DNA from: Patescibacteria group bacterium | GTDB lineage: Bacteria; Patescibacteriota; Patescibacteriia; JBAZBY01 | Length of the DNA stretch: 64,000 bases | Direction: 5' to 3' | Assembly (NCBI GenBank): GCA_041671225.1 | Contig: JBAZBY010000001.1 | Span: 430,940-494,939 of the forward strand | Part shown: in pieces, positions 6,022 through 63,937 of the stretch | How positions within the stretch are numbered: the stretch's first letter is position 1 | How the letters are laid out: every line of letters begins with the position of its first letter | Notes under the pieces: model-generated | What the model was told of the DNA's origin: nothing | Seen by the model: only the letters and a program-made list of their open reading frames with translations | The model's database searches: none | Position numbers and translations under genes: made by a program

Positions 6022-6064
6022 AAAAAAAAATAGAGCATGCGTAGTTTACAGCATAATGTCAGCA

Positions 6065-12100: not shown

Positions 12101-12831
12101 TTGTTGGTTCCACAACCACAACGCAGCATGCGTCAGGCACGGGCAGCTTTGCCTTCACGCCGACAGAGGAACTCACTGGCGTCCAGCATACGCTGTATGC
12201 GGTTGCCGTTAGCGGCGACAGCGCCTCCAGAAATTCACCGGATGTGCATTTTACCGTAGAGCTGCCCTTCATCGGCATCACGTTCCTGGATGCATACCTT
12301 GTACAGGCACTGCCGGAACCATATATCGCCTTTGAAGGCATCGGCGCAGGCGGATCGCGCGTCGACTTTTATCTGAACGATGAATTCCTGGATCGCATCG
12401 GCTTGCTCAACGGGCATGATTCCGTGGAGCACTTCACATACAAACTGTATGCCAATAACCTAGTGCCAAAGGATTACACATTATATGCGATCGCATACGA
12501 TGATAGTGGCAAGTCTTCACGAAAATCGAACGTGGTGAGTTTCACCAAGTCCAGTGATGTTGCCGCGTCGATATTAGTGACCAGTCTGGGTAGCGCACCA
12601 GTCCCCGCAACGCCTTCTCCGCAGCCGATATCCCTGCCAACGGTCATTGGAACCGGCCCGGGTGGAACATATACCGTACAGCGCGGAGACAGCTTATGGA
12701 GCATTGCAGAGGCACAGCTTGGCGACGGCTCTCGCTACGACGAAATAATCGCATTGAACCAAGATGCGCATCCGGAGCTGCTCATGGATTCGGGGAGTAT
12801 TTACAGCGGCTGGGTTCTGCGGCTGCCCTAG
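6139..12831 (+). CDS. giant (2230 aa) cell-surface protein: N-terminal TM anchor, phage-tail-collar-like repeats, repeated beta-helix-like modules, FN3 and Ig-like domains, C-terminal LysM
   Basis: Single ORF. Collar-like segments PAGWSCQSCGSGDFYQKFPRGAATYGGTGG and HTH...LPPYRDV repeats. FN3-like TWDSSEGTTTQVRYG and ITWDTNHLADSKVRYG. EPEPEPEPE linker. C-terminal LysM GTYTVQRGDSLWSIAEAQLGDGSRYDEIIALN. Track start 6139 is GTG; alternative ATG at 6166. Confidence 0.85.
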   Translation: MIFFVKIKKMNWAAMFRHLKEQRDACLARAQAGGLFVKAIGYIACFVLDIVLVFALIPFSITASPTASFQRVARFSPDKGFIDSYDKHLKYYRASVGTALLAGVGVSLQIIFALATFGILSFSNPTQVNAVDGRMLAFWDASGPVPAGWSCQSCGSGDFYQKFPRGAATYGGTGGGTTHTHAMSYLSMSGTISSPLSLIGGAVVQASKLHTHTYIYDQTMNAGTSLPPYRDMEVIRYDTTGAPATIPAGVILMFDAAPSGSWTRYTDQDGSFIYGENDVTGTGGSETHNHTNVGYTVDASAGNAGIELGDGLGAGSFDAHTHTVSGATTNTVSTLPPYLDVLLYKATGETALPDGAIAMWDDTPADAAWTVNSGASQLFNEKFLRGNSSYTGIAAGSATHGHSNLASVTSGPSGGANNAGSGTKSGASYSHTHSISVTIGAATNYLPPYRDVIIAQYSTDITISGTIRQSNESTAYDCSANNLTVNVSVNGGANSTATCTAADGSFSVSASQPSSAGDPIVVSVDSGESVQATTVTLAADTTSAITDLDLYENRLIVRHEDAGPITNAKLATGDNGDAGIRYGVASSNLTVDNNIELHVWTGDTFIPGGIVTTQGSADFHIDDSATATLATTGNTIAGDAVVDTGATLNLNANTTIDGGAIATAGTGTVATSGTPTVTLHGTGSIGGGSGAIAFYNLTIGDASAAATTMDSDVSIANVLNVDTSDSMTIAASKTVTLGASATVTLNGSILGDGRLIYANISTTFPTSGIISSVLRFDSSSGNITIPARTYGGDVELYSNSGTIRIAPIGTAPGQTITIGGDYIIIADGTADIYSNNLTYAPIMLITGGIDFTGIGSGTERIEGGTSNWTITGGIDFTGGSCGCTTSDFTFNGGGTLNFASNTVDDLTITGTYTVTSGSLAGVNGTLDLTGSTTTLTNTTIWMRGSTGTIIGAGNAFSTLSIGNGSDIITVADSDFSVTANLNILFATDTLSIGAGRTVTLSGTLTMPGTISGEGRLTYQNAAAFPTTGTISSILRFDATNNDQTMSTRVYSGAVEIVNSSDAAARTVTMSAGDTYFLSDLTLAANGTQNVTLNAATNSATPSVGGNIDFNGTGAGTEIIVSGAQQWVVTGDVDFTGGTYTASAGNTFAMDGIGKVLTSAGTTFQHFAPYGDITLADALVVAGDVTAAGNFDAAGKAITVSGSWDGSAGAFTPNGNIVTFDATAAGKTIITGGSSFYDVDFNSASGGWTVQTDDMVTHDLTLTDAASFTLESGRTLTVQGNFTNSVPSTTTWTGTTLYLNGSGGLQTINTKGSGDTYATLRIGASEDIAMWDSSAGTVTTDAGGCLLSQDDAGTAGRLNIYGTCNSRANEYWAYATDFDGTALGGASRQADVRFADGASFTVDAGDTLQVLGQSASANRTAITRQSTGNYGVSVDGTLSAQYYDFDYLNASGLNITSTATVSELSDGSYDNNAAGASSAYITVTGNTSATTFTNIVFDSAGDGADANVVYNVNADGSGIDWTFLAAAGNKNGESFDREVNGASVVWTEIFTAVNDGLTGDADFSNDTDTLSANWAMDDETGIDHYEYAFGTTQGGTDVVNFTNAGLATVATENNLALVDGTTYYATIRAINAGDDVMEEASSNGVVVDTAAATFSNIQDSATTTTITITWDSSEGTTTQVRYGITAGYGSATIADPALLTEHSATISGLNEDTTYHYQLVGVDRAGNETTSADRTIVTDGLDPTVITNTQSTVLSSTSVLITWDTNHLADSKVRYGLTTAYGLEEYDATLVTSHSMTLTGLEPGVQYHYEVLSVGNTSTNDADATFITDAEEPEPEPEPEDELTPVENVELNGEAAQTGDDFNLIFIPKSGTLIFIGTAESNATVRIRLDGFYTASTTSDADGNWEIIISVKSTPLEFGEHIAEARVLKNGHSTSYERIAEFQLTSERYLASPTILSPEEDEIVISLRPLITGLAESGSIIHFYIDNVFVGSTTTTQHASGTGSFAFTPTEELTGVQHTLYAVAVSGDSASRNSPDVHFTVELPFIGITFLDAYLVQALPEPYIAFEGIGAGGSRVDFYLNDEFLDRIGLLNGHDSVEHFTYKLYANNLVPKDYTLYAIAYDDSGKSSRKSNVVSFTKSSDVAASILVTSLGSAPVPATPSPQPISLPTVIGTGPGGTYTVQRGDSLWSIAEAQLGDGSRYDEIIALNQDAHPELLMDSGSIYSGWVLRLP

Positions 12832-50179: not shown

Positions 50180-50254
50180 TGGGGCGACCAGAGGGTTACG
50201 ATCCCTCGTCCCCGGGACCACAACCCGGTGTTCTACCATTGAACTATGATCGCC
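50180..50254 (-). tRNA. tRNA-His (anticodon GTG) with genome-encoded G-1 and discriminator C73
   Basis: Reverse complement G-GCGATCATAGTTCAATGGTAGAACACCGGGTTGTGGTCCCGGGGACGAGGGATCGTAACCCTCTGGTCGCCCCA. Anticodon loop TTGTGGT. Extra 5' G pairs with C73. T-loop reads ATCGTAA (non-canonical). Confidence 0.8.
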
Positions 50255-50489
50255 ACGTCCAACACGGATTTCGGCCTTCGTCCCGCCGAGCGGGACTCCG
50301 CCCTCAATCACGTGTTCTCCTCTTCCCCATAAACGTGTGCTCGACCTCGCTTACGGTACTCACTCGCTACACTCATTCGTACCTACTCGGTCTGCGCACC
50401 CCGTTCATGGGGGCCCCAGGGATTAGGGGAGTTAAATGCCAAACGATTCTAGTGCAATTGTAACATGAAGTCAATGCTATACTAGAAAT

Positions 50490-51494: not shown

Positions 51495-51665
51495 TATGCT
51501 CTGGTACCCCCGGAAGGAATCCCCGCCTTCGTCCCATACCGAGACTTCGGCGGGTCCGCCGTAGCTCTTCCGAGAGCGGAGGCGGAGAAACCTACATCTT
51601 GGGTGGCTTACACACCTACGTCCTTACGGGCTATGGTGGGCAGGAAGTTCTCAAACAAATATTCT

Positions 51666-51852: not shown

Positions 51853-54800
51853 ATGAGAAAGCCTAAAAAAATAAAGCGAAAGCAAAACGCAACCAGGGGG
51901 ACGCGATTCTTTTCTCTGGCGCTGGGTATCATTGTGGCGCTGGGTCTTCTTATTGTGCTTTGGCCCCAAACACTTGAGGAGCCTGAACGCCCTTTACGCA
52001 AGAGTATTCTCGGGCTCGAACAGCGCTTTCTCATCCCCGGCACGTGCACCGGATGGCATGAATCCGCGCGCGCAAAAGAGACTGATCTTCTTGGTTCTTC
52101 TGCTCGTGATGCATTTGATGATTCTAATAGTGCGTTTATCCCTGGCAAAGAGGCAGTGCTTGGTGTTGGGAATATTGAGTTAGAGGATGTGAGCACAGAA
52201 TTGCGTTGTGACAGCTTTGCTTTTCCAGAAGATATTGAACCGAATGCGTTGCTGGAAAATATATTCCTTCGTCTTTCGCTTGCCGCAGATGGAGTGCCTG
52301 ATAATGAAGATGTGCTGGCACTGTCATATAGCACAGATGACGGAGCAAGCTGGCATACGCTTGAATCCTTTCCGCTTATTGACGAGCTAAGCAATAATAT
52401 CAACGACGGTTTTTTTCGTTATGAACTGCCAGAACTGACTGATCCAAAAAATCAACTGGGGCATCTTATATTTCGGGCGGAGTATTACCCTGGATTCATT
52501 GAGCAGCACAGCCAAGCACTGATTGATGGCGTGAATATCGCCATGTCCTTTCAGACCGACCCCGAGGAGTTTGATGTAGATGCTACGCCATTAGAAGCAG
52601 TACAGATTGCGAAAGGAGATTTTCAGATGTTTGAAGATCCGGTCATACGGGTGGATATTGAAGAGCGTAGCGCGTTGAGTTTTATTGGCATTGGTGCCAC
52701 AAAACGCGAGGTGACGAACATTAAAGTCACTGATCCGGTTGGTACTATCATCCCTGACGTTGCAGTATCTGAAGTAAAAAAGGGCAAAAAGACCATTGCT
52801 GAATATCGGATTGATGAAACGCAGTTTACTCAGCCTGGGCAGTATCAGGTGCAGATTGAAATCACACAGGACGGGGAAACATACCTCATCACCCAGGATT
52901 TCACCTGGGGCGTGCTAGCGCTGAACGTGCTGAAGTCCGTTGCGCTCCCGGGCGAGACCGTGAATGCCGGCATGGCGGTGCTCACTCCCGGCGGCAATAC
53001 GCTCTGCGATGCGGAATTGGAACTGATCGTCACCAGCCCGTCTGGGACGCGCGAGACCTTCCGCACAACGGATGGCACCATAGCGCTTTCATCCGAATGC
53101 GGCCCGGAGACCGTGACCAACGTGCCGGATTATGCGGCATCATTCACCGCAATCGAGGTTGGACTACACGGCTTGGCACTCACTGCGCGCACGGAGTATG
53201 GCGAGTACACCATCACCGACGCGCTTGACGTCCGCGCGAGCGTGCCGTTTGATGTGACACGGCTCGGCCCGACGCGCATCTATCCGGAGGCGGACTATAC
53301 GATGTATATGGAAGTGGTCCCCACGCAGGATCTGCTGGGCACGGTGGAAGAATTCGTTCCGGCGGGCTTTGTCTTGAGCAACGTGTCCGATGGCGGCGAA
53401 GAGCGCGCCATCAGCGACGCGCAAAAAGCAGTACGCTGGCTGGTGGACTGGAAGGCGGGGCAATCATATACCCTTTCTTACACATTTGATGCGCCGAATG
53501 TGAGCCCGGAATTTTATTTGCTCGGCCCTGCAACATTCGGTGCGTCGTTCGTTGAAGCACGGCAATGGCAGATCGCTTCTGATGCAACGGATAACATGCT
53601 CGCTTTTTGGGCAGGCGGTGATCCGCCAGCAGGGTGGACGTGCGTGTCTTGCGGCTCCGGTGACTTTTACCAGAAGTTTCCCCGCGGCGCTGCCACTTAC
53701 GGCGGAACAGGCGGCGCAGCGACCCATAACAATCACTCCATCTCATGGGTATCTACCACTGGCACAATTACTCCTCCATTTTCAAATATTGGTGGTGCTG
53801 TAACTGTTGCAGCAAAAGTTCATACCCATCCATGGATAAGTAGTGCCAGCATGGGCAGCGGCACATTGCTGCCGGCCTATCAGAATCTGAAGGTCATTCG
53901 GTATGACACCACCGGCACCCCGGCGACCATTCCCTCTGGCGTGATTTTGATGTTTGATGCCGCTCCGACCGGATCTTGGTCGCGCTACACAGCCCAGGAC
54001 AACGATATGATTTATGGCGAGAATGACGCCACTGGTACTGGCGGGACAGCGACGCATACTCATGGCAGCGTCGGTTATACTGTGGATTCATCTACTGAGA
54101 CATCTACACCTCAATTTGGTATGGGCGGTGTTTTTGGGGCAGTAAACGGACATCAGCATACTGTTTCTGGTGCAACCACTGCTTCAGGTAATCATACACC
54201 TCCTTATTTAGGCGTGCTTCTTTATTCAGCCACTGCTGATAATACCCTGCCAAGTGACGCCATAGCCATGTGGGATGACACCCCGGCTGACACAGATTGG
54301 TCTGTGGTTTCAGGCGCTGCCCAATCCTATAATGGTAAATTTTTAATGGGCGTATCCTCATATACTGGGACTCCCGGAGGCAATTCCACCCATAATCATA
54401 GCAACCTCGGCAGTACTACCAGTGCGCCAACAGGCGGAACAGTTGAAGCGGAAGGAGGAACTAAAGGAACTGGTGCAGTTAGTACCCACACTCATACAGC
54501 CACCGTTTCTTTCGGAAATGTGAATAATCTGCCGCCGTACATTGATGTGATCATGGCAAAGTATACTGCGCCTGTTGGCATAGATATTTCAGGGCGTATT
54601 TATACCGATGAAGGATCCACCGGGCTTGATTGCGGCACGCCGCGCACGGTGCATCTCCGCATCAATGGTTCCGGAACAGACACGGTTGAGTGTTCCAATT
54701 CGCCGTCCAATGGCTCTTTTTCATTCAGTGGTGTTTTTGTTGACTCGGCGGATATTGTCACCCTCTATCTTGATAACGAGACCGAGGAGGCGACCACGGT

Positions 54801-57800
54801 TTTTGTTTCCGACGGCACTTCGCAGACCGACGTGGCGCTGTATCAAGATTTCGTCGTCGTGCGCGCGGATACCGGTTCCATCATCAATGCGAATCTTGTC
54901 ACCGGAGATGATGCAGATGATGACGTGAAGTATAACGTAGCGTCCAGCAACCTCACCGTCGATTCCGGCTTTGCTTTGCACGTCTGGACCGGAGATACCT
55001 TTGCGCCCGGAGGCACGGTGACCATGCAAGGAGCTGGCGGCAGTGTGCATATCAACACATCCGCAACGCTCAACATGGCCGGGAGCGCGCTCTCCGTCAC
55101 CGGAAGTTTTGATAACGACGGAACATACACCCCAGGAGCGAACTTAACGTACTTCGCCGCTCCTTCCGGCACCGTTACCATAAGTTCAGCAAGCGCATTC
55201 AACAATATTTCATTCAATGAAGATGGCGGGCCGGTGACCTATACGCATTCTTCAGCCCTCGACGTGAACGGGACCTTCACGCTATTGGACGGGACCTTCC
55301 AACAGGGAGCGAATGTGAACCTGAATATCGCCGGCAACATCGAATTAGCGAACGCATCGACGTTCACCAAGGCTTCCGGCACCGGACTTTTGATCCTTGA
55401 CGGGGATCTGACATTTTTTGATTGGCACGCGTCAAAACAGGATATGGGAAATGTGCACATCGGGACGTCGCCTGACACCACGGATCTTACAAGCGACATG
55501 GCCGCAACATCGCTTACGGTGAATGCCGCTGATATTTTCAACACGAACGGTTATGACCTTGATATCGGAACGGGGGGCATCACCGTTTCCGGTACGCTTG
55601 ATGCAACGGATGACGCTGAGGGGGATGATACGAGCATCAATACCGAAGGGCTGTTCGATTTGAACAGCGGCGCAACATTCACGCAGGATCAGAGTACGGT
55701 GACGTTTGACGCAACGTCCGGTACTGATGGCATCACCGATGATGCAACGCTCACATTCTACAACCTTGTGCTTAATGATGCTGGCGGTTCGCTTCAGGTC
55801 GACGCGGTGAACAGTTTTGAAGTGAGCAACAACCTCACCATTACCAACGGTACGCTGAATATTGCGAGCGGCCAGACCGTGACGCATAACGGTGCAACGC
55901 TCACGCTTTCAGATATCATCAGCGGCGCCGGCCGGCTCACGTACACGAGCGCAACGGCGTTCCCGGCCACCGGTACCATATCTTCCATATTGCGTTTTGA
56001 CGCGACCGGCGGGAACCAGACCATGAGTGCGCGAACGTATGGGGGCAACGTGGAAGTGTACAACAACAGCGCGAGCACGCGCACAGTGACGGCAGCAGCA
56101 GGGACAGAAACGCTGAGCGCGAATCTGGATCTTTCCACAGGCAACGCCGCGGTGACGCTTGATCTGAATGCGAACAACCCGACATTCGATGTGGCCGGGA
56201 ATGTGACCATCGGCGCGAGCACAACGCTCATTGCGACGACGAGCGCATTCACCGTGGCTGGAAACTGGGACAACAACGGCACCTTCACGCATTCCAGCGG
56301 CACGGTCACCATGGATGCTGCGGATACGGACAACACGATCGAGTGCGGAGCATCTTCGTTCAATGCGCTGACGCTGGCCGGAAGCGACAGCAGCGGCACG
56401 TGGACCGCGCAAACGGACAATTGCACCGTGGCCGGAACATTGAATGTGGATACCAGTGACGTCCTGACCATCACCACTGTTACCGTGACGCATTCAGGCG
56501 CAACGCTCACGCTCAACGGAACGATTTCCGGCACGGGCCGTCTGACGTATTTGAGCGCGACCAACTTTCCTACCTCTGGGACCATCTCGTCCATCCTGCG
56601 TTATGATATGACTGCTACAGCCCAGAATGTCACCAACCGGACGTATGGCGGCTTGGTGGAGATCTATGCGAACACCGCGTCAACACGTTCAGCAACGGCA
56701 CTCGCCGGCACCACTGTGATGACCGGCGGACTGACGCTTTCCACGGGCAATGCCGCAGTCACCTTTGACCAGACGACAAGCGACCCGACGCTCACGGTAA
56801 CAGGAACCGTGACCATCGGTACAGGAACGACCTTCAGCGCCAGCAACAGCGCCACAACATCTTTTGCCGACAGCTATATCAACAATGGAACATTTACTGC
56901 CAACAGCGGAATAATCACCTTCACGGCAACGGATGCAGGCAATACACTTTCTGGCACGCTCAACGGGTCATCCGCTTTTTATAAAGTTAGATTCAACGGC
57001 ACGGGCGGCGAATGGACCACGCAGGACCCCATGCTCATCTCCGCAGCCAATGACGCTGCTACGCTTCAACTATATGCCGGAACCGTGACGGTCGGAAATG
57101 GTAATGGCGATAATTTCGAGGTGGACGGCAGAGTTGTCATTGCCGGGAACGTCGGTGAAACGGCAACACTGCAGACTGCCGCACTTGCTGAAGGCAGCTC
57201 ACTCATTTTTGACATGAATGCCAACACATCCACACCAACGTGCGCAAACTGTTATGTGCAGGTTGGGGTAGGCGGCGGTGCTGGTACCGGAATATTCAAA
57301 GTACAGAAGAATACTATTCTGCGCCTCAACCCGCGCTCCGCAGCAACAGCATCAGATACCGGTGTCCAAGTGCAGACCACCGGAAATTTTCAAGTCGTCG
57401 GTTCACTTGATGATTCTGGTACGTCAGATAGCACGACCAACGAAACGACGCTTACCGATACCACGAAGGCCTGGACGACCGACGCGCACATCGGAAAGAA
57501 GATGCGCATTTCTAATACGAGTTCCCTTGCCTACGGCCGCGTGTATCCCATTACCGCCAACACTGCGACCGCGCTCACATACACCACCACGGCGTCGGCC
57601 AGCTCCACCATCGCGTCCATCACCAACACCGGCGCCAACCCCACGCGCATCATCTGTTCCGCGTCGAACGCCTTGATCACGGCGGACGACGCAGGTATCG
57701 GACGATATCTCCACGATACAACCGGTACAGCAGGCTATTTCCAGATCGTTGACTCCACGAACAATAATGCGTCATGTTCTTCCAATGACTCATTTGTCAT

Positions 57801-60522
57801 CGTGGCCATCCCGACTGCCTTCACGGCTTTGGCAGTAAGCGACGCCATTCAGGTATCCGACGGTCTCCAGCAAGGTGACCAGTATGAGATTCTCGATTAT
57901 GCGTACGTCACTGCGGAGAACGGAACGGCATGCAATGCGGCAGTGAACGAAGCAGGAGAGGCATATATCTATGGGAATGCTGCCTCACAACTTACCATTC
58001 AGTACGCTGATGTGTGCAATCTCGGAAGGAATGCCGGTGGATACCGCGGTCTTGAAGCGTCGGGCATTGATGGTTCAGTGGCAAATGCGGGCATTCTCAT
58101 TGACCGTTCTGAACTTCACGGAAATGCCTGGAATTATTTTGGCGTTAGTCCGAACAATAATAGCACCTACGGATATGGGGTGTATCGCAACCTCATCTAT
58201 AGCAATGCAACACATGCCATGCGTCCGGGCGGGAATGGCATGGAGATCAATGGCAACCGCATCTATAGCAACACGGGGTATGGCGTGTATGGCGCCAATG
58301 CCACGACGTTAGTGATCAGCAATAATCATATCTACCTGAATAGCAGTGATGGTATTGAGATCGAGGGAGCGGGCGCGACTGTTTCCGGGAACACCACCTA
58401 CAAGAATACCGGGTCAGGCATCTATTTTGTCACCTCTGATAATTGTTCCGGCACATCGAATGCTACATTCAGCAATACGGTCCACGGTATTTATGACAAT
58501 TCTGCGTCATACAACAACACCTATACGGGGAACAGTGTTTATTATAACGATTCGTATGGGTTGCGTATCAATAGCACAACGAATACGACCGCAACCTCGA
58601 ACGCGATCTATGCGAATAAAAGTTACGGGCTTGTTACCTCGAACACGGTAAAAAATATTGTCGCTCGCTCAAATACGATTTATTATAATACATTGATTGA
58701 TGTTCTTGTAGGCAAAACAACATATAGTATTTTTGAAAATAACACGATTTACAACATTGGCTCTCCAACGGCTACGTATGGGATTTACATAAGTAATACG
58801 CCGAATTCAAACAATGTTTTCATCGGAAACGCTATTTACAATCAACGTTATGCGATTCAAACAAGCGATAATGCTGCTGTGACGAATACCGTTTTCATCA
58901 ATGAGCAATATGGCGTTTCCGGGAATAACGCTTTCTGGGATATCAATAGTGGCGGATATGCTGACCAGTTATATTTTTACAATTCAACTTTTGGCTCAAC
59001 AACAGAAAACAATGCATTGACTCCGGCGAACGCATTCTATATATCGCGGAAGCACGACGGAGTAGCTGGAGCGACAAAGGTCTGGGGCGAGTACGCGGTG
59101 CAGGCCGACAACACGGAAACGCCGCAGAACGAGGCGACGGATCAGTTCAACTACGCCAACGACCTCTGGCCGGATTCCTTCACGCCGCACGGGTTTTCAG
59201 TTGGGTATGGCGCAGGCAGCGAGGACACCGACCTTGACTATGCAGTAAGCGGAACATTCGGCGGTGATGCGAGCGCATATTCATACCGGGTAGTTTGTAC
59301 TGCGGCCAATTGTGTTTCAACCGGAAGCTCGTGGGACGTGTACCGCAACGGAACATTGCTTACCGCCAAGGCATCAACCGGCTCTCTCTATACAGATGCG
59401 CAGGTTGACGGCAGCACGGCACCCAGCATCCAATTCAAAATTGATGACGCAGGCACGGATTACACTGCTGGCGCTATGTACACGTTCGTTGCGTGGAAAG
59501 CGAGCGGAGATACCAGCACGCAGAAGGCCATCACTATGGCGCAGGATGGGGACAAGTTCACCGTTGCTTCCGGCAGAACGCTTGAACTCAAAGGGAATAC
59601 TGGCGGCGCAAACCCAACGCTCATCACGCGCGGCGCCACCGGCGGATATCAGTTCAGCGTGAGTGGCGCGATCGACGCAGACGGATATTCATTTAACTAC
59701 CTCGGCGGGGCTAGCCAGGCGAGCGGTTTGGATATCAACTCCGGTGCAACGGTCACCAGTCTTGATAACGGATATTTCGATAATTTTGGCACGAACGTGG
59801 GAAGTGCTGATTCATTCATCGATATCGATTCGTCGCTCATCGGCAGCGGCACCCCAACGCGCTCGCTGTATAAGGTATCGTTCGATAACACCACTGGATA
59901 TGCGAACTGCAACATCAATGCGACCGGCGCAGACGCTGCGGGGTATTGGGAGTTTTTGAACAGCACAGGGGCTTTCACCGGGGAAAGCTATGACTGCAAT
60001 GACGCTGCGGCAGATGGTACGCCCGGGCAGATAAGCTGGGGTGATCCATCCATCACACTCAGCATCTCAGATACCGCGATCGGCTTCGGGTCGCTTTCCG
60101 ATGCCGCGGCGCGATATGCGACGGATGATGAAGCCGGTTCAGACAGCGAGGTTGAGGCCCATACCGTCACCGCCAGCACGAACAGTGATAACGGGTATAG
60201 CATCACGGTACAAGGAAGTACACTCACCAGCGGCGGCGATACCATCAGCGCGATCGGTCCAGTAAATACGGCATCAGATCCCGGGACAGAGCAATTCGGC
60301 CTGCGCATGACGGCATCCGGCGGGTCAGGAGCGGTGAGCGCACCATACGCCGCGTCAGGTTTTGCACTGGACACCGCTGCGTTCCCGGACGAGGTCGTAT
60401 CAAGCTCCACTGCAGATAGCGGCACCACGTATTCCGCGCGGTATCTTGCGAATATTTCCGGCCCCACGGAAGCGGGGATATACAATGCCATACTCACTTA
60501 TATTGTGGTTGGTTCTTTCTGA
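51853..60522 (+). CDS. giant (2889 aa) cell-surface protein: N-terminal TM, tail-collar-like module, ~65-aa TLxGxISGxGRLTY repeats, long PbH1 parallel beta-helix region, C-terminal WxL-like domain
   Basis: Collar-like PAGWTCVSCGSGDFYQKFPRGAATYGGTGG almost identical to giant gene 1. Beta-helix repeats NRIYSNTGYGVYGANATTLVISNNHIYLNSSDGIEIEGAGATVSGNTTYKNTGSGIYF... C-terminal 165 aa homologous to the two downstream 357-aa proteins. Confidence 0.85.
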   Translation: MRKPKKIKRKQNATRGTRFFSLALGIIVALGLLIVLWPQTLEEPERPLRKSILGLEQRFLIPGTCTGWHESARAKETDLLGSSARDAFDDSNSAFIPGKEAVLGVGNIELEDVSTELRCDSFAFPEDIEPNALLENIFLRLSLAADGVPDNEDVLALSYSTDDGASWHTLESFPLIDELSNNINDGFFRYELPELTDPKNQLGHLIFRAEYYPGFIEQHSQALIDGVNIAMSFQTDPEEFDVDATPLEAVQIAKGDFQMFEDPVIRVDIEERSALSFIGIGATKREVTNIKVTDPVGTIIPDVAVSEVKKGKKTIAEYRIDETQFTQPGQYQVQIEITQDGETYLITQDFTWGVLALNVLKSVALPGETVNAGMAVLTPGGNTLCDAELELIVTSPSGTRETFRTTDGTIALSSECGPETVTNVPDYAASFTAIEVGLHGLALTARTEYGEYTITDALDVRASVPFDVTRLGPTRIYPEADYTMYMEVVPTQDLLGTVEEFVPAGFVLSNVSDGGEERAISDAQKAVRWLVDWKAGQSYTLSYTFDAPNVSPEFYLLGPATFGASFVEARQWQIASDATDNMLAFWAGGDPPAGWTCVSCGSGDFYQKFPRGAATYGGTGGAATHNNHSISWVSTTGTITPPFSNIGGAVTVAAKVHTHPWISSASMGSGTLLPAYQNLKVIRYDTTGTPATIPSGVILMFDAAPTGSWSRYTAQDNDMIYGENDATGTGGTATHTHGSVGYTVDSSTETSTPQFGMGGVFGAVNGHQHTVSGATTASGNHTPPYLGVLLYSATADNTLPSDAIAMWDDTPADTDWSVVSGAAQSYNGKFLMGVSSYTGTPGGNSTHNHSNLGSTTSAPTGGTVEAEGGTKGTGAVSTHTHTATVSFGNVNNLPPYIDVIMAKYTAPVGIDISGRIYTDEGSTGLDCGTPRTVHLRINGSGTDTVECSNSPSNGSFSFSGVFVDSADIVTLYLDNETEEATTVFVSDGTSQTDVALYQDFVVVRADTGSIINANLVTGDDADDDVKYNVASSNLTVDSGFALHVWTGDTFAPGGTVTMQGAGGSVHINTSATLNMAGSALSVTGSFDNDGTYTPGANLTYFAAPSGTVTISSASAFNNISFNEDGGPVTYTHSSALDVNGTFTLLDGTFQQGANVNLNIAGNIELANASTFTKASGTGLLILDGDLTFFDWHASKQDMGNVHIGTSPDTTDLTSDMAATSLTVNAADIFNTNGYDLDIGTGGITVSGTLDATDDAEGDDTSINTEGLFDLNSGATFTQDQSTVTFDATSGTDGITDDATLTFYNLVLNDAGGSLQVDAVNSFEVSNNLTITNGTLNIASGQTVTHNGATLTLSDIISGAGRLTYTSATAFPATGTISSILRFDATGGNQTMSARTYGGNVEVYNNSASTRTVTAAAGTETLSANLDLSTGNAAVTLDLNANNPTFDVAGNVTIGASTTLIATTSAFTVAGNWDNNGTFTHSSGTVTMDAADTDNTIECGASSFNALTLAGSDSSGTWTAQTDNCTVAGTLNVDTSDVLTITTVTVTHSGATLTLNGTISGTGRLTYLSATNFPTSGTISSILRYDMTATAQNVTNRTYGGLVEIYANTASTRSATALAGTTVMTGGLTLSTGNAAVTFDQTTSDPTLTVTGTVTIGTGTTFSASNSATTSFADSYINNGTFTANSGIITFTATDAGNTLSGTLNGSSAFYKVRFNGTGGEWTTQDPMLISAANDAATLQLYAGTVTVGNGNGDNFEVDGRVVIAGNVGETATLQTAALAEGSSLIFDMNANTSTPTCANCYVQVGVGGGAGTGIFKVQKNTILRLNPRSAATASDTGVQVQTTGNFQVVGSLDDSGTSDSTTNETTLTDTTKAWTTDAHIGKKMRISNTSSLAYGRVYPITANTATALTYTTTASASSTIASITNTGANPTRIICSASNALITADDAGIGRYLHDTTGTAGYFQIVDSTNNNASCSSNDSFVIVAIPTAFTALAVSDAIQVSDGLQQGDQYEILDYAYVTAENGTACNAAVNEAGEAYIYGNAASQLTIQYADVCNLGRNAGGYRGLEASGIDGSVANAGILIDRSELHGNAWNYFGVSPNNNSTYGYGVYRNLIYSNATHAMRPGGNGMEINGNRIYSNTGYGVYGANATTLVISNNHIYLNSSDGIEIEGAGATVSGNTTYKNTGSGIYFVTSDNCSGTSNATFSNTVHGIYDNSASYNNTYTGNSVYYNDSYGLRINSTTNTTATSNAIYANKSYGLVTSNTVKNIVARSNTIYYNTLIDVLVGKTTYSIFENNTIYNIGSPTATYGIYISNTPNSNNVFIGNAIYNQRYAIQTSDNAAVTNTVFINEQYGVSGNNAFWDINSGGYADQLYFYNSTFGSTTENNALTPANAFYISRKHDGVAGATKVWGEYAVQADNTETPQNEATDQFNYANDLWPDSFTPHGFSVGYGAGSEDTDLDYAVSGTFGGDASAYSYRVVCTAANCVSTGSSWDVYRNGTLLTAKASTGSLYTDAQVDGSTAPSIQFKIDDAGTDYTAGAMYTFVAWKASGDTSTQKAITMAQDGDKFTVASGRTLELKGNTGGANPTLITRGATGGYQFSVSGAIDADGYSFNYLGGASQASGLDINSGATVTSLDNGYFDNFGTNVGSADSFIDIDSSLIGSGTPTRSLYKVSFDNTTGYANCNINATGADAAGYWEFLNSTGAFTGESYDCNDAAADGTPGQISWGDPSITLSISDTAIGFGSLSDAAARYATDDEAGSDSEVEAHTVTASTNSDNGYSITVQGSTLTSGGDTISAIGPVNTASDPGTEQFGLRMTASGGSGAVSAPYAASGFALDTAAFPDEVVSSSTADSGTTYSARYLANISGPTEAGIYNAILTYIVVGSF

Positions 60523-60643
60523 TTTCTTGACCCAAAGAGCTTTCCGTGGTATACTGTTTTTGTTGAAGCTCATCAGAGGGGGAATTTTCCGCCTTGAATT
60601 TTCAGCAAAAAAAGATAGAATTCATTCGTTAAGAGAAGCAGAT

Positions 60644-61717
60644 ATGCAGAAGCGACTTCTCATCAGCGGTCTTATCCTCGCGTTCGTCACAGCGCTTACT
60701 TTGCCGTTGCCGCAAACAGCGCATGCGGCCAACCTCACATCACTCTCTGACACGCTCTCCACGCTCACGCAGAATGTTGCGGCGAACCACACCATCCTCT
60801 TCGTCACCCCCACCGGCGTCCAAGCGACCGCTGATACCATCACCATCGACCTTACGGACTTCACCGTCGGTACCGTTGACTACACGGATATCGATCTTGC
60901 AGAAGATAACGATGGCGCGTGCGACGGCACATGGACGGACAAGACGCTTGCCGCTGTTGCAGGCGCTGGAGAATGGGGCGCAGCATTCGCTGCTGCCGTC
61001 CTTACCCTCACCCCGCCGACCGATGCCGCATCCGGTGAGATCGATGCCGGATACTGCGTACAAGTGGAGATCGGCACCAATGCCGCAAGCGGCAATGCGC
61101 AGCTTACCAGCCCGAACGACACCAACACGCATGTCATCGAGCTTGCAGGCAACTTTGGCGATGACGGAAAGTATGCCGTAGACTTTGTTGCGGATGATAG
61201 CGTGGCGGTGAGCGCCACTGTCGACCCGACGATGACTTTTGCCATCTCCGACACGGATATCGGCTTTGGAACGCTTTCTGCGAGCGCAGCCACGTGGGCG
61301 ACCGACGATGCGGCGGGTTCGGCCACGGATGTCGCAGCGCACACCCTTGCCCTCTCCACCAATGCGACCGATGGCTATGCCATCACGTATAACGGCGCAA
61401 CGCTGACATCGGGAAGCGATACTATTTCTGTTGCGACCATTTCCAATAATGCAGACGGCACGCCAACGACAGAAGAGTTTGCCATGGGCTTTTCCACTGA
61501 CGGCGATGCGACCATTGCCGCGGCATATGACCATAATGCGACGCCGGGAAGCCGCGACTGGGCATTCGTGGCAAGCACCACGACGACCATTGCCTCAGAG
61601 CTCGGCCCAACCGCAACAGAGACCATCAGCGCGTTCTATCTTGCAAACATTGCCGCGGTAACGGAAGCGGGCATCTATACGACCAGCGTCACATACATTG
61701 CGACGGCCACATTTTAA
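60644..61717 (+). CDS. 357-aa secreted protein with C-terminal WxL-like domain (paralog A)
   Basis: Track ORF trimmed to MQKRLLISGLILAFVTALTLPLPQTAHA signal peptide. C-terminus ...DTDIGFGTLS...DGYAITYNGATLTSGSDTIS...EAGIYTTSVTYIATATF. Confidence 0.75.
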   Translation: MQKRLLISGLILAFVTALTLPLPQTAHAANLTSLSDTLSTLTQNVAANHTILFVTPTGVQATADTITIDLTDFTVGTVDYTDIDLAEDNDGACDGTWTDKTLAAVAGAGEWGAAFAAAVLTLTPPTDAASGEIDAGYCVQVEIGTNAASGNAQLTSPNDTNTHVIELAGNFGDDGKYAVDFVADDSVAVSATVDPTMTFAISDTDIGFGTLSASAATWATDDAAGSATDVAAHTLALSTNATDGYAITYNGATLTSGSDTISVATISNNADGTPTTEEFAMGFSTDGDATIAAAYDHNATPGSRDWAFVASTTTTIASELGPTATETISAFYLANIAAVTEAGIYTTSVTYIATATF

Positions 61718-61723: not shown

Positions 61724-62797
61724 TTGTACATGGGAAAATATCGCATCATCTCTCTTATCCTCATCATGACATTGGGGTTTGGTTTATCGTGGGCGCCTGT
61801 CCGTGCGGTAAGCCTCACATCACTCTCTGACACGCTCTCCACGCTCACGCAGAATGTTGCGGCGAACCACACCATCCTCTTCGTCACCCCCACCGGCGTC
61901 CAAGCGACCGCTGATACCATCACCATCGACCTTACGGACTTCACCGTCGGTACCGTTGACTACACGGATATCGATCTTGCAGAAGATAACGATGGCGCGT
62001 GCGACGGCACATGGACGGACAAGACGCTTGCCGCTGTTGCAGGCGCTGGAGAATGGGGCGCAGCATTCGCTGCTGCCGTCCTTACCCTCACCCCGCCGAC
62101 CGATGCCGCATCCGGTGAGATCGATGCCGGATACTGCGTACAAGTGGAGATCGGCACCAATGCCGCAAGCGGCAATGCGCAGCTTACCAGCCCGAACGAC
62201 ACCAACACGCATGTCATCGAGCTTGCAGGCAACTTTGGCGATGACGGAAAGTATGCCGTAGACTTTGTTGCGGATGATAGTGTTGATGTCACCGGAACCG
62301 TGGACGCAACAATGACGTTTGCCATCAGCGATGTTGATGTCGGTTTTGGCACGCTTGATGCGAGCAATCCCCGTTGGGCGAATGCCGGCGGCACAGGCTC
62401 AGCCACAGATACGGCCGCGCATACCTTGAGCCTTGCGACGAATGCGACCGATGGCTATGCCATCACCTATAATGGTGCAACACTCACCAGCGGAGCAGAT
62501 ACGATTACGGTTGCTTCTATTTCTAATGATGCAGACGGTACACAAGGATCGGAACAGTTCGCCATGGGCTTTTCCACGGACGGCGATGCGACCATTGCCG
62601 CGGCATATGACCATAATGCGACGCCGGGAAGCCGCGACTGGGCATTCGTGGCAAGCACCACAACGACCCTTGCCTCAGAGCTCGGCCCAACCGCAACAGA
62701 GACCATCAGCGCGTTCTACCTTGCAAACATTGCCGGAAATACAGAAGCAGGGATCTATTCCACCAGCGTCACGTATATTGCGACGGCCACGTTCTAA
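61724..62797 (+). CDS. 357-aa secreted protein with C-terminal WxL-like domain (paralog B)
   Basis: Signal peptide MGKYRIISLILIMTLGFGLSWAPVRA. Residues ~28-190 encoded by DNA 100% identical to paralog A (61800..62283 = 60722..61205). Confidence 0.75.
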   Translation: MYMGKYRIISLILIMTLGFGLSWAPVRAVSLTSLSDTLSTLTQNVAANHTILFVTPTGVQATADTITIDLTDFTVGTVDYTDIDLAEDNDGACDGTWTDKTLAAVAGAGEWGAAFAAAVLTLTPPTDAASGEIDAGYCVQVEIGTNAASGNAQLTSPNDTNTHVIELAGNFGDDGKYAVDFVADDSVDVTGTVDATMTFAISDVDVGFGTLDASNPRWANAGGTGSATDTAAHTLSLATNATDGYAITYNGATLTSGADTITVASISNDADGTQGSEQFAMGFSTDGDATIAAAYDHNATPGSRDWAFVASTTTTLASELGPTATETISAFYLANIAGNTEAGIYSTSVTYIATATF

Positions 62798-62887
62798 GGT
62801 GGGAAAACCGCCATTTCTTTTTTCTGGGATTTCAGTATACTTACTATAGATTATTAACGTTTCATAGTGAAAAAGGGGGATTTCTTT

Positions 62888-63937
62888 ATGCAGAAGCTTG
62901 CTATGGCACTCATCGTGCTCGGCATATTTTTTGTTTTTGGGTTGGAGAAGGCGCAGGCCTTGACCATCATCCCCCCATCAACGGAGTTTCAGGTGGATCC
63001 TGGTGAGACATATGAAACGACCATCAAGCTCTTCAATGAGACGCAGAGCGATCTCACGCTCTATACGGATGTTCGGAATTTTACGCAGCTCGGAGAAACC
63101 GGAACGCCGAATTTTGATTTTGATGCGGAGCTCGCCGGCCTTGCCTCATATATCACGGTAACGCCCGGGCCCATTCCCGTAGGTGCTGGCGAGCGCGTGG
63201 AAGTTGCGGTGAAGATCGCTTTCCCATTGGATGCTGAACCCGGCGGAGCCTACGCTTCTGTATTTTTTACCGAGACCCCCCCAGTACCCACAGCACCTGG
63301 CCAGGTCGCGATTTCTTCAAAGCTTGGCAGTCTTTTGATCGTTCGCGTTAGCGGGGATATTCTTGAAATGGGCGCGGTTTCTGATTTTGGTACTGAGGTC
63401 TGTAATAGTGAGACCAAAACCTGCGCGGAGCATGGCGGAACGTATAACCGTCTTCCGATAGAGTTTTTTATGCGGTATACCAATACAGGCAATGTTCATT
63501 TGCGCCCGAGCGGCACTATTGCAATAAAGAACATACTTGGCGGTACCACTGCGACGCTAGAAATGAATGACGCAGACGGTGCAACGCTTCCAGACAGTAC
63601 GCGCAAATATACTGCTGTGTGGGAGAAAGAAAGAGTGAATGCAGATGAAGGCAATATATGGACGGATTTTTGGCAGGAATTCGGCAATGAATGGCGCAAC
63701 TTCGGCCTTGGCCGTTATACCGCAATGGTTACCGTTACCGCTGGCGAGGATACCATCATTACTGATACCGGCACTCTTACGCTGTGGATTTGGCCATGGC
63801 GCGTGCTTGTTATCTCCTTACTCGTCTTGGTTGCCCTCGTTCTCATTATCTTCTTTGGCATCAAGCGCTATAACGCGCACATCCTGAAGAAAGCCGCGGA
63901 ACAGCAGGGTCAATCTAAGCCGTCGAGCAAGGTGTAG
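62888..63937 (+). CDS. DUF916-like surface protein with C-terminal TM anchor and basic tail (CscA-like)
   Basis: ATG 62888 preceded by AAGGGGGA (track start 62867 is GTG). Signal peptide, beta-sandwich-like LTIIPPSTEFQVDPGETYETTIKLFNETQSDLTLYTDVRNF, C-terminal WRVLVISLLVLVALVLIIFFGIKRYNAH. Confidence 0.65.
   Translation: MQKLAMALIVLGIFFVFGLEKAQALTIIPPSTEFQVDPGETYETTIKLFNETQSDLTLYTDVRNFTQLGETGTPNFDFDAELAGLASYITVTPGPIPVGAGERVEVAVKIAFPLDAEPGGAYASVFFTETPPVPTAPGQVAISSKLGSLLIVRVSGDILEMGAVSDFGTEVCNSETKTCAEHGGTYNRLPIEFFMRYTNTGNVHLRPSGTIAIKNILGGTTATLEMNDADGATLPDSTRKYTAVWEKERVNADEGNIWTDFWQEFGNEWRNFGLGRYTAMVTVTAGEDTIITDTGTLTLWIWPWRVLVISLLVLVALVLIIFFGIKRYNAHILKKAAEQQGQSKPSSKV

Follow-up and report, generated by a model that had tools for sequence, protein, structure and literature searches.

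A giant gene on the forward strand (51853..60522; 2889 aa), recognised from the ORF list and its translation, leads a Pam-type pilus operon in the window, i.e. the whole stretch of 64,000 nt that was analysed. We propose that its product is probably the distal tip adhesin of a Pam-type pilus, a donor-strand-exchange filament that monoderm CPR bacteria build with the help of chaperones, because its C-terminal domain (CTD) is of the Pam type and the gene stands at the head of a pilus operon. The Pam system was first described in a 2026 preprint (bioRxiv 10.64898/2026.03.03.709456); new here is a variant of it that is led by a giant gene.

The giant ORF begins with an ATG, is preceded by an AGGGGG Shine-Dalgarno-like site and runs as a single, stop-free frame over 2889 aa. 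An identical protein is called in the NCBI MAG (1.03-Mb contig; Patescibacteria) and in three further assemblies. Because these calls come from independent assemblies, the ORF is not an artefact; with the architecture conserved as well, an assembly error, a frameshift or a fusion could be ruled out, and the uninterrupted reading frame of the original prediction was confirmed. The sequence strings quoted there are likewise all present (PAGWTCVSC...GTGG at aa 592-621, TPPYLGV at 782, LPPYIDV at 893 and NRIYSN... at 2135). The assemblies other than the 1-Mb MAG end right after the giant gene, which is likely due to a 470-nt stretch that is identical in the two pilin genes. By lineage, the source stands closer to Kerfeldbacteria-like Patescibacteria than to Saccharimonadia. 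An Rfam scan of the window returned tRNAs only, and the GC-rich 170-nt spacer upstream of the giant gene (51495-51665) folds no better than shuffled sequences (z about -1.4).

The last ~160 residues (aa 2731-2889; 60043..60519, +) were recognised by HMM as a Pam pilin CTD that has no pilin-type linker. The CPR_Pam_pilin_C model (NF058581) gives 78.8 bits (cutoff 55) over aa 2768-2889, and an independent family HMM gives 207 bits. On this sequence evidence we assign the giant CTD to the Pam pilin domain with high confidence. It shares 36-42% identity with the CTDs of the two downstream pilins, and all three have a common C-terminus, ...AGIY..(L/V)TYI....F. In a profile search yielding 850 cluster representatives, the domain lies at the extreme C-terminus in all of the top 150, as it does in the giant; protein lengths in the family range from ~160 to 3431 aa, with 17 of these top 150 representatives exceeding 2000 aa. 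The PamT model (NF058579, an equivalog) reaches 37 bits at model positions 76-241 only, compared with its 240-bit cutoff. The giant thus occupies the PamT slot of the operon, yet is not a PamT equivalog. Pfam WxL (PF13731) did not match its C-terminus at E<=10, and Pfam Fimbrial matched the giant at E 0.15; neither the C-terminus nor a pilin profile found a significant sequence match in the PDB.

What sets the giant CTD apart from those of the pilins is its upstream edge. The family HMM alignment starts at node 14 in the giant, but at node 2 in the pilins. Just upstream of the CTD, a VxV[ST]AxV linker motif is found in 62-80% of the pilins of 321-420 aa (36/58 and 53/66 in two sets), whereas it occurs in 0/31 and 0/10 proteins of more than 1200 aa and is absent from the giant at both the motif and the HMM level. 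Judging from this motif and from the linker placement in the preprint, the giant CTD appears to lack a donor strand. Ahead of the CTD, a pre-CTD domain (aa ~2440-2730; 59170..60042, +) has at its end the ..C-N..W junction that typifies large CTD proteins, the [C/N]..W pattern being present in 27/31 and 10/10 proteins >1200 aa of the two sets. A stretch of the giant (aa 2550-2764) is 34% identical to aa 1381-1582 of a paralog in the same window.

These features also bear on whether the giant could instead be a shaft or base subunit, which both donates and accepts strands or terminates the pilus, with its 2700-aa passenger decorating the filament. The conserved pilin strand SITLSISDTAIGFGSL (TFSISD..IGFG) is present in the giant; if this were the donated strand, the giant could also lie within the shaft. 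One related locus (L064), moreover, combines PamT-size and large CTD genes. The SITLSISDTAIGFGSL strand, however, aligns inside the PamT model, and PamT is linker-less according to the preprint (bioRxiv 10.64898/2026.03.03.709456). The pilin-type linker motif is missing from every examined protein >1200 aa, and the Pam terminator, which donates a strand, carries a TM helix at its C-terminus; the giant has neither feature at the end required. It would also be sterically implausible for every subunit to bear a 2700-aa side passenger, and each locus has only one such gene. We therefore regard a position in the shaft or at the base as very improbable and retain the distal tip as the preferred position.

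The genes that follow resemble a pilus operon in content and order. The first shaft-type Pam pilin (357 aa; 60644..61717, +) comprises a signal peptide, an N-terminal domain, the linker VADDSVAVSATV and a CTD; it scores 64.6 bits with NF058581 and its family HMM alignment begins at node 2. The second (355 aa; 61730..62797, +) scores 71.1 bits and carries the linker VADDSVDVTGTV. The DNA of their N-terminal domains is 100% identical over about 470 nt, while the signal peptides and the start of linker and CTD differ. A consensus scan placed a promoter-like site (TTGACC-17-TATACT with TG extension, 10/12; 60527..60555, +) between the giant and the first pilin gene, and a terminator-like hairpin with T-run (62798..62812, +) directly 3' of the second; counts of such sites in the region are not above those in shuffled sequences, so that both are to be taken as hints only. 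Further downstream genes, of 372 and 424 aa, code for proteins with domains of Ig or cohesin type and a TM helix at the C-terminus; they match no Pam model, and a search of the downstream genes with the Pam models did not reveal a PamR-like terminator or anchor. Neither the Pam CTD nor this pilus operon figured in the original prediction.

Three genes downstream of the giant, with an ATG start at 62888, lies a candidate for a membrane-anchored pilus chaperone (349 aa; 62888..63937, +). Its AF2 model (pLDDT 89.6) shows two beta-sandwich domains in addition to the signal peptide and a C-terminal TM helix. In a Foldseek search of the PDB, the best matches were Enterococcus faecium WxLIP structures (9i1y and 9i25, E 5e-10), one of the matched WxLIP entries having been solved bound to a "long WxL" protein; further matches were the chaperone-usher chaperones CsuC, CfaA, Caf1M, DraB, EcpB and CupB2. 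The modelled structure has a WxLIP/PapD-like fold of two Ig domains and agrees with how PamC and PamD are described (bioRxiv 10.64898/2026.03.03.709456). At the sequence level, the candidate matched neither Pfam nor NCBIfam including the PamC/D models, and a PDB sequence search with its profile gave nothing significant; Pfam WxLIP_PGBD (PF06030) is matched by 19 of 41 homologs of the chaperone, but not by the candidate itself.

Where the giant is held depends in part on its N-terminus. Read by eye, the sequence shows a basic n-region and a long, 19-aa hydrophobic h-region (aa 19-37 of the region aa 1-37; 51853..51963, +) without a clear AxA site. The segment may be a Sec signal peptide or a signal anchor. 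At the equivalent position, several to many homologous giants carry a canonical signal peptide of the cleavable kind. Of the N-terminal TM anchor that had been proposed, the hydrophobic segment exists, but the picture of an anchored fibre that went with it is probably wrong or incomplete. According to that picture, the N-terminal helix is retained and the Pam-like CTD only docks on the wall, on the chaperone-like protein or on the side of a pilus. An uncleaved segment would keep the giant tethered to the membrane, an awkward arrangement for a tip subunit. The long h-region, the basic n-region and the lack of a clear signal-peptidase site are consistent with an anchored fibre. So are the WxLIP matches of the chaperone-like protein; WxL domains reportedly bind both peptidoglycan and WxLIP non-covalently, and the WxLIP paper proposes a static anchoring complex, not a pilus (PMC10599100); the paralog at 6139..12831, for its part, ends in a cell-wall-binding LysM domain instead. 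On the other side, the giant CTD passes the Pam pilin-domain model, and the shaft pilins of this family form filaments (bioRxiv 10.64898/2026.03.03.709456); two shaft-type pilins with linker motifs follow directly downstream; the same operon slot is filled by PamT-like tip pilins in related loci; many homologous giants carry cleavable signal peptides; and members of the pilin family do not match Pfam WxL. We consider an anchored fibre unlikely. Display on a pilus is favoured over simple membrane anchoring because a Pam CTD, adjacent pilins and a chaperone occur together.

Gene order in 78 related loci, sampled from species-representative genomes, agrees with a role of the giant in the tip slot. 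A lead gene with CTD is followed by one or more pilin genes of 340-390 aa and then by one or more chaperone genes, all on one strand. The lead gene encodes at least 2249 aa in 12 of the 78 loci and at most 320 aa (PamT-like) in 13, and the PamT model matches the products of the small lead genes from end to end (167-193 bits). Giant-led loci have no gene of PamT size and PamT-led loci have no giant, with L064, which holds both PamT-size and large CTD genes, as the one exception. Three observations stand apart from this pattern and weigh against the tip role: the giant falls well short of the PamT equivalog cutoff, the chaperone has no family match, and a PamR-like gene was not found.

The ~2700 residues upstream of the CTD are modular. 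The conserved N-terminal module (aa ~60-578; 52030..53586, +) contains a C-x-G-W motif, an Asp-box-like SYSTDDGASW and an MG2-like Ig domain; the MG2 match is weak, and PF01835 is precomputed for six homologs. This module is the part that is common to other giants (29-43% identity) and is present in 12-21 of 43 other large CTD proteins. The T/G/S/N-rich "stalk" (aa 913-1750; 54589..57102, +), for which an all-beta fold is suggested by composition only, matched nothing in Pfam or NCBIfam, but is common to 14-21 of the 43 proteins and to the paralog. Self-comparison revealed a ~202-aa tandem repeat within it (55675-57024, +; aa ~1275-1520 versus ~1477-1724, 45-61% identity). The original prediction had described repeated 65-aa modules; their conserved strings, TL(S/N)...GRLTY...ILR(F/Y)D, are real and occur in two copies (aa 1351-1383 and 1553-1585), but represent only the best-conserved cores of the ~202-aa repeat. 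A following region (aa 1751-2050; 57103..58002, +) matches no family and is specific to the giant, being common to 0/43 other large CTD proteins.

N-module, stalk and CTD are each common to 12-39 of these 43 proteins, whereas the triple HxH module described below and aa 1750-2600 are shared with none or one of them. The sequence comparison thus suggests that N-module and beta-rich stalk form a conserved scaffold, into which the HxH module and a beta-helix have been placed as cassettes specific to the giant. The paralogous giant gene (2230 aa; 6139..12831, +) has the same triple HxH module and a stalk, with 43% identity between its aa 134-1150 and aa 581-1488 of the giant. It ends in two fn3 domains and LysM; its Pfam matches are fn3, Pur_ac_phosph_N and LysM, and the CTD HMM does not match.

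The HxH module (aa 581-912; 53593..54588, +), delimited by self-comparison, resembles receptor-binding fibres of phages. It consists of three tandem units of ~110 aa, each with two HxH motifs and one (L/T)PPY motif; the His, Trp and Pro-Tyr positions do not vary among 14 sequences, the six HxH positions being invariant or near-invariant. An AF2 model of aa 575-915 (pLDDT 75.8, pTM 0.73, core >=90) was compared by Foldseek with BFVD, where Pas28 (E 1.9e-14) and Pas29 (E 4.1e-14) of phage phiAsp2 were the leading matches (TMq 0.55-0.57); weaker matches were a "phage tail collar domain containing protein" at 1.5e-5 and, at 7.9e-4, a tail fibre. Pairwise blastp of the module with Pas28 gave 35% identity (E 7e-8). 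In a tblastn search of 50,697 phage records, the sole match was again Pas28, at E 0.7, which is meaningful only in combination with the fold match.

The region had originally been assigned to the phage tail collar/MdpB domain. Neither Collar (PF07484) nor any other Pfam family matched aa 570-930 at E<=10, the HMMER filters limiting sensitivity above ~0.1; PF07484 was also found in 0/14 homologs, and Pas28 and Pas29 likewise have no Pfam match. The modelled fold therefore points to a resemblance to receptor-binding tail proteins at the level of fold, as seen with AF2 and Foldseek against BFVD, and not to membership in the Collar family. PHROGs gave nothing meaningful for the HxH module, N-module, C-terminus, pilin or chaperone, and a PDB sequence search with the HxH module nothing significant. 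The best Foldseek match among solved structures (E 0.08, TM <0.3) was rejected. Possibly, and as a hypothesis only, the three units form a single-chain pseudo-trimer that binds metal on its pseudo-threefold axis.

The second cassette is a right-handed parallel beta-helix of the PbH1 type (aa 2077-2365; 58081..58947, +), detected with Pfam. Beta_helix (PF13229) matches aa 2077-2204 (4.9e-13; 49.4 bits, cutoff 25.9) and NosD (PF05048) aa 2176-2365 (4.8e-9; 36.4 bits, cutoff 23.6); the TIGR03804 repeat is matched as well. While these matches bear out the predicted beta-helix, its extent had been overestimated: instead of ~600 aa with "dozens" of rungs, we find ~290-300 aa with roughly 9-13 rungs, and the 23/47-aa periodicity is confined to aa 2050-2400. 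The beta-helix is common to 0/43 other large CTD proteins.

Phage tailspikes join beta-helices with receptor destruction. The giant might accordingly be mainly an enzyme, either secreted or displayed: a tailspike-like depolymerase or modifier of polysaccharides that attacks the host envelope and for which adhesion is secondary. The PbH1/NosD-type matches would fit such an activity, as would a weak similarity to the C5-epimerase AlgG (E 0.1). Pfam, NCBIfam and PDB sequence searches, on the other hand, identified no catalytic family or catalytic residues, and the beta-helix makes up ~10% of the protein. Descent of the beta-helix from any particular enzyme family was rejected, the weak similarity to AlgG being all that the PDB sequence search gave. 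We find a mainly enzymatic role improbable; it is, besides, compatible with the tip-adhesin model and not an alternative to it.

For the tip adhesin we envisage the following assembly. The giant would be exported by Sec via its N-terminal hydrophobic segment. Its last ~160 residues, by HMM membership a Pam pilin CTD, would represent an incomplete Ig-like domain that acts as strand acceptor and would first be capped by the membrane-anchored two-domain chaperone, as in the pilus model. By analogy with the cryo-EM model of PamA/PamB, the linker strand VADDSVAVSATV of pilin 1 or VADDSVDVTGTV of pilin 2 would then displace the chaperone and join the pilin to the giant, and further pilins may subsequently add at the pilus base, as in the PamA/PamB model. 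Because an acceptor domain is present and a pilin-type linker is missing, the giant would be confined to the distal end, like PamT, FimH and PapG, and its ~2700-residue passenger would be held away from the cell. The HxH module and the PbH1 helix, a type that binds or cleaves polysaccharides, are candidate parts for the recognition of host or partner cells.

Little is known of the means by which ultrasmall CPR episymbionts recognise their hosts and keep hold of them. A giant in the tip-pilin slot offers a concrete candidate for a determinant of host specificity, since it combines a domain that joins the pilus with lineage-specific cassettes. That an episymbiont attaches by means of a surface structure, the general idea of the original prediction, is supported and can be sharpened, the DNA coming from a Patescibacteria MAG and encoding a pilus operon. 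The pattern is not a one-off, as giants occur in 12 of the 78 related loci and account for 17 of the top 150 family representatives.

A wider reading joins three proposals; taken together, we hold them to be tentative and rather doubtful. According to the first, some CPR lineages swapped the small PamT for giant modular adhesins with cassettes borrowed from phage receptor-binding proteins. The second regards the cassette of the giant as a single-chain pseudo-trimer of the HxH metal-binding fibre-tip fold, a module that recurs in TasA/SipW fibre operons elsewhere; if this were true, donor-strand-exchange fibres would commonly carry phage-type receptor-recognition modules as a "warhead". The third takes the kinship of the chaperone to WxLIP (DUF916) to mean that the Pam pili of the CPR and the WxL clusters of Firmicutes belong to one ancient family of chaperone-assisted pili in monoderms, a family that would also include relatives found on Deinococcus plasmids and in Nonomuraea. 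The link made here between the Pam chaperone and WxLIP/DUF916 could change the understanding of the Firmicutes WxL clusters; the terms WxL, DUF916 and DUF3324 do not occur in the text of the preprint (bioRxiv 10.64898/2026.03.03.709456).

Among known systems, the phage fibres are comparable to the HxH module only. Pas28 and Pas29 of the Actinoplanes phage phiAsp2 share its three tandem units with clustered HxH motifs, and Pas29 has been annotated as possibly recognising a receptor, with similarity to the TuIa tail fibre. The module can also be compared with T-even gp37-type fibre tips and "tail collar" domain proteins, i.e. phage receptor-binding proteins with HxH motifs. Unlike these, it sits in a cellular pilus protein and not in a virion. 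The WxL clusters of Firmicutes comprise a small WxL protein, a large WxL protein and WxLIP (DUF916, DUF3324 and a TM helix), and AF2 predicts that a strand of the chaperone inserts into WxL (PMC10599100). WxLIP (9i1y, 9i25) provides the structures closest to the chaperone of the giant operon. WxL proteins are described as peptidoglycan-bound complexes and not, like Pam pili, as filaments; a relationship on the pilin side is not supported by Pfam, WxL being matched by 0/79 pilin-family members at E<=0.1.

The closest system is the Pam pilus of Candidatus Mycosynbacter amalyticus, with the shaft pilins PamA and PamB, the linker-less tip pilin PamT, the chaperones PamC and PamD, and a PamR-like terminator or anchor that has an N-terminal donor strand, two FnIII domains and a C-terminal TM helix (bioRxiv 10.64898/2026.03.03.709456). 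How this pilus contacts its host is stated to be unresolved; a conserved "tail fibre-like protein" is reported nearby, and CTD fusions of giant size are not described (bioRxiv 10.64898/2026.03.03.709456). This preprint, which concerns another CPR class, is the single source for the Pam system itself. Both systems occur in CPR bacteria and have a CTD above the HMM cutoff, pilins laid out as N-terminal domain, linker and CTD, a two-Ig-domain chaperone with C-terminal TM helix (PamC/PamD), and a lead slot shared with PamT-like proteins. They differ in that the chaperone here has no NCBIfam match, that a PamR-like anchor was not found and that the CPR lineage is another one. PamT, moreover, is a single-domain protein of 241 aa, whereas in the giant the acceptor domain is fused to a passenger of ~2700 aa.

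In this fusion the giant follows the logic of the chaperone-usher tip adhesins FimH, PapG, CsuE and CfaE, in which an N-terminal receptor-binding passenger is combined with an accept-only pilin domain, so that they are placed at the tip only. The chaperones of these systems have a fold related to that of the giant operon. No sequence relationship of the adhesins to the giant was detected beyond the Pfam Fimbrial match at E 0.15. In contrast to the chaperone-usher systems, the giant operon operates without usher and outer membrane and with a membrane-anchored chaperone, and the passenger of the giant is about ten times larger than those of the chaperone-usher adhesins, and modular.

The open reading frame at 51853..60522 (+) starts with ATG and comprises 2889 codons with no stops; an AGGGGG ribosome-binding-like site lies upstream of it, and a tRNA-Arg gene is located just before it on the opposite strand. 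The identical 2889-aa protein is an NCBI MAG protein from a 1.03-Mb contig ('right-handed parallel beta-helix repeat-containing protein [Patescibacteria group bacterium]'). Since it is also called identically in one ENA and two Logan assemblies, we regard this giant as a real protein, and a sequencing or assembly artefact is excluded. The organism is present in the samples ERZ27249449, SRR6484324 and SRR18595301. The original prediction of a single uninterrupted ORF was thus borne out, and all sequence strings quoted there could be located in the giant. The beta-helix call holds as well (Pfam PF13229, 4.9e-13, and PF05048, 4.8e-9, together spanning aa 2077-2365), but the helix covers ~300 aa instead of the ~600 aa proposed, its 23/47-residue periodicity being confined to aa 2050-2400. 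Likewise, the repeated 65-aa modules are present in two copies, but turned out to be the cores of a ~202-aa tandem repeat (45-61% identity).

What had been overlooked is a C-terminal Pam pilin domain (CTD), together with the pilus genes downstream. The last ~120-160 residues of the giant match the NCBIfam model NF058581 ('CPR_Pam_pilin_C, Pam pilus system pilin subunit') with 78.8 bits at a cutoff of 55, so that the giant belongs to the Pam pilin-domain family. The C-terminus also aligns, more weakly, to the NCBIfam model of the tip pilin PamT; the giant is not a PamT equivalog. Pam pili have been seen by cryo-EM in the CPR bacterium Ca. Mycosynbacter amalyticus, where the pilin domain accepts the linker of a neighbouring subunit by donor-strand exchange and PamT, consisting of the acceptor domain only, was modelled at the tip (bioRxiv 10.64898/2026.03.03.709456).

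The giant gene is followed by two genes for secreted pilins, pilin 1 (60644..61717 (+), 357 aa, NF058581 64.6 bits) and pilin 2 (61730..62797 (+), 355 aa, 71.1 bits). The C-terminal 175 aa of both are 36-42% identical to the C-terminus of the giant, and all three proteins end with the motif ...AGIY..(L/V)TYI....F. In shaft pilins, the N-terminal domain is followed by a conserved DDxVxV(T/S)AxV segment and then by the CTD. Among pilins with 321-420 aa, 36/58 and 53/66 have VxV[ST]AxV at this inter-domain position, as against 0/31 and 0/10 CTD proteins >1200 aa, which have a [C/N]..W junction in its place (27/31 and 10/10). Similarly, the alignment to the family HMM starts at node 2 in the pilins (VADDSVAVSATV...) and at node 14 in the giant (DPSITLSISD...). 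Going by these sequence patterns, we read the DDxVxV(T/S)AxV segment as the putative donated linker, because the donor strand was placed between the two domains and described as one of the most conserved parts (bioRxiv 10.64898/2026.03.03.709456), and because the next strand, TFSISD, aligns inside the linker-less PamT model. If TFSISD were the donated strand instead, the giant would belong in the shaft or at the base of the pilus, a reading that we consider very improbable. Across the N-terminal domain, the DNA of the two pilin genes is 100% identical for ~470 nt, whereas their signal peptides and the linker/CTD start have diverged (59-77% identity). This suggests a recent gene conversion, or a duplication with diversification of the strand-exchange region. 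Other assemblies break directly behind the giant gene, and the identical stretch is the probable cause.

Pilin 2 is followed by the gene for a chaperone candidate (62888..63937 (+), 349 aa), which has a signal peptide, a C-terminal TM helix and no match of its own in Pfam or NCBIfam. The known Pam chaperones, PamC and PamD, are PapD/FimC-like and have a C-terminal TM helix (bioRxiv 10.64898/2026.03.03.709456). In an AlphaFold2 model built with 41 homologs (pLDDT 89.6, pTM 0.78), the candidate has two beta-sandwich domains and the TM helix. Among solved structures, this model is closest to the Enterococcus faecium WxLIP entries 9i1y and 9i25 (E 5e-10), followed by the chaperone-usher chaperones CsuC, CfaA, Caf1M, DraB, EcpB and CupB2, and 19 of the 41 homologs match Pfam PF06030 (WxLIP_PGBD, DUF916). 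Judged by these matches, WxLIP (DUF916/PF06030) from the WxL clusters of Firmicutes is a relative of the Pam-type chaperone family, which suggests that Pam pili and WxL clusters possibly form one system family. This kinship is a by-product of our analysis that may have broader importance, and the same may apply to chaperone relatives on Deinococcus plasmids and in a Nonomuraea gerenzanensis record. One such relative, detected by tblastn (3e-5) and by the family HMM (64 bits), is encoded among unannotated secreted proteins on plasmid NZ_CP026517.1 of Deinococcus sp. NW-56 (locus 5929-11502). Some of these proteins end in beta-strand motifs such as ...ATLTYTLTS, so that similar systems may exist beyond CPR and Firmicutes. 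The Nonomuraea match (NZ_LT559118.1) is weak (E 5e-3), and that to a Streptomyces plasmid is not significant (E 2).

A profile of the three CTDs, searched against 1.84 billion representatives, retrieved 850 proteins at E<=1e-3, of which 170 reach E<=1e-30. In all of the best 150 of these 850 matches the CTD is located at the very C-terminus. The lengths of these 150 vary strongly: 14 proteins have <260 aa, 61 have 300-400, 26 have 600-1000, 14 have 1000-1500 and 24 have >1500 aa, 17 of the latter exceeding 2000 aa. The chaperone has 504 relatives among species-representative genomes, and the 78 loci fetched share one gene order, with a lead CTD gene, one or two pilins (340-390 aa) and one or two chaperones on one strand. 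The lead gene encodes at least 2249 aa in 12/78 loci (often cut by the 10-kb flank) and at most 320 aa in 13/78; in ~9/78 it is intermediate (complete with 551-769 aa, or at least 600 aa and truncated where the contig or locus ends). The small lead genes align with the PamT model from end to end (167-193 bits). A PamT-size gene is absent from loci led by a giant, as is a giant from those led by PamT, locus L064 being the sole exception; no further CTD gene was found in the window or in the 10 kb downstream. We take these patterns as evidence that the giant fills the tip slot. Many operon-bearing genome records (L020, L022, L023, L029, L031 and others) bear the title 'uncultured Gammaproteobacteria bacterium' (MAG TPA_asm, binchicken or SRP co-assemblies), while Pirellulales and Methylomirabilis are each named in one title. 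As the operons are clearly of Patescibacteria type, these are likely mislabelled or contaminated bins.

Compared with 43 other CTD proteins >1200 aa, the giant shares its N-module (aa ~100-600) with 12-21, its beta-rich stalk (aa 900-1700) with 14-21 and its CTD with 32-39 of them, but the HxH module (aa 600-900) with only 0-1 and the region including the beta-helix (aa 1750-2600) with none. From this distribution, the giant looks like a conserved scaffold bearing protein-specific cassettes. The N-module gives a weak MG2 (alpha-2-macroglobulin Ig-like) signal, and PF01835 is precomputed in six homologs. One N-module homolog, P0015, has 2565 aa and is 36% identical over aa 302-621; it bears the label Candidatus Woesearchaeota archaeon (DPANN), which could reflect gene sharing between CPR and DPANN or a binning error. 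An enzymatic role of the beta-helix, while compatible with a tip position, appears distinctly unlikely to us.

The HxH module, originally likened to a phage tail collar, is built from three units of ~110 aa in tandem, every one of which contains an (L/T)PPY motif and two HxH motifs. The collar likeness stands at the level of the fold, but not as membership in PF07484. Only 14 homologs of this rare module were found (337-584 aa), none with a Pfam Collar match; its His, Trp and Pro-Tyr positions are invariant. The AlphaFold2 model (pLDDT 75.8, pTM 0.73, 164 residues at >=90) has one strand pattern in all three units, and within each unit disordered loops separate the two HxH motifs. It matches no solved structure, but several predicted viral ones. 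The best are two proteins of Actinoplanes phage phiAsp2, Pas28 (E 1.9e-14, TMq 0.57) and Pas29 (4.1e-14); they are followed by a 'phage tail collar domain containing protein' (1.5e-5) and by the tail fibre of an Aeromonas phage (7.9e-4). Pas29 is annotated as 'possible receptor recognizing protein; contains HXHY motifs; similar to phage TuIa tail fiber'. Like the HxH module, Pas28 and Pas29 have three tandem units with HxH clusters, and pairwise alignment with Pas28 gave 35% identity (E 7e-8). In T-even fibre tips, iron is bound by HxH motifs contributed by three chains; by analogy, the HxH units may form a single-chain pseudo-trimer whose six motifs make two octahedral metal sites. A 2230-aa paralog in the window (6139-12831 (+)) carries the triple HxH module and the stalk with 43% identity over ~1000 aa; it differs at the N-terminus, lacks a Pam CTD and ends with two fn3 domains and LysM, so that one cassette is displayed in two ways in one genome. 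Beyond CPR, the triple module is found in proteins of ~500 aa, such as P0024 (L084 6001-7455), that have an N-terminal signal of TasA/SipW type (AYFxDxETS); their genes are flanked by Peptidase_M73 (TasA/camelysin) and Peptidase_S26 (SipW-like) genes. The TasA fibre system reportedly uses donor-strand complementation.

According to our proposal, the giant would be exported via Sec, and the membrane-anchored chaperone would cap its C-terminal acceptor domain until displaced by the linker of the first shaft pilin. More pilins would join at the base, pushing the giant outward at the distal end, where the phage-RBP-like module and the PbH1 helix would touch the partner-cell surface. Domain membership, operon content, synteny, the chaperone fold and the phage likeness at fold level are results of the analysis; from these we infer this tip position and these interactions, as well as signal-peptide cleavage and a receptor-binding role. 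A strong promoter-like site (60527-60555) between the giant gene and pilin 1 and a terminator-like hairpin after pilin 2 would suit many pilins per tip subunit, though neither the promoter nor the terminator scan was above chance overall. The giant was originally seen as an attachment fibre with an N-terminal TM anchor. Its N-terminal segment has a 19-aa h-region and no AxA site, which speaks for this view, and if the anchor is retained, a cell-anchored fibre with a WxL-like docking domain is the better model. We consider it unlikely; many homologous giants have canonical signal peptides.

For PamR, the proposed terminator and anchor of the Pam pilus (bioRxiv 10.64898/2026.03.03.709456), no counterpart was identified. 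Directly after the chaperone gene, just past the 3' end of the window (L004 1817-5052), three genes encode proteins of 282, 372 and 424 aa. The first contains Big domains plus a type I dockerin (5.6e-8), the other two have C-terminal TM helices as well as cohesin-like or Big_13 domains and are candidates for a PamR-like anchor. Alternatively, these genes may encode a cohesin-dockerin surface display pair. The opposite strand carries an N_methyl (type IV pilin-like) gene here. Just upstream of the operon is a PGA_cap gene (50490-51494 (+), 1.7e-56; CapA-like, poly-gamma-glutamate capsule synthesis family), separated from it by the tRNA-Arg gene and a GC-rich 170-nt spacer with no significant structure. 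An annotated 183-aa ORF (49912-50463 (+)) has no family match, encloses a tRNA-His gene (50180-50253 (-)) and is probably spurious.

The authors of the Pam study call host contact of the pilus unresolved and note, near pam operons, only a conserved 'tail fibre-like protein'; large fusions to the pilin domain are not described, and WxL, DUF916 and DUF3324 do not occur in the text (bioRxiv 10.64898/2026.03.03.709456). Neither the giant fusion in the tip slot nor the phage-RBP-like cassette is described in this, the only paper on the Pam system. In cluster logic, the giant is akin to the 'large WxL protein' in the WxL clusters of Firmicutes. Pfam and PDB searches showed no sequence relationship to WxL or to FimH/PapG on the pilin side, yet by analogy the giant would follow the same working logic as FimH/PapG, a passenger joined to an acceptor-only pilin domain.
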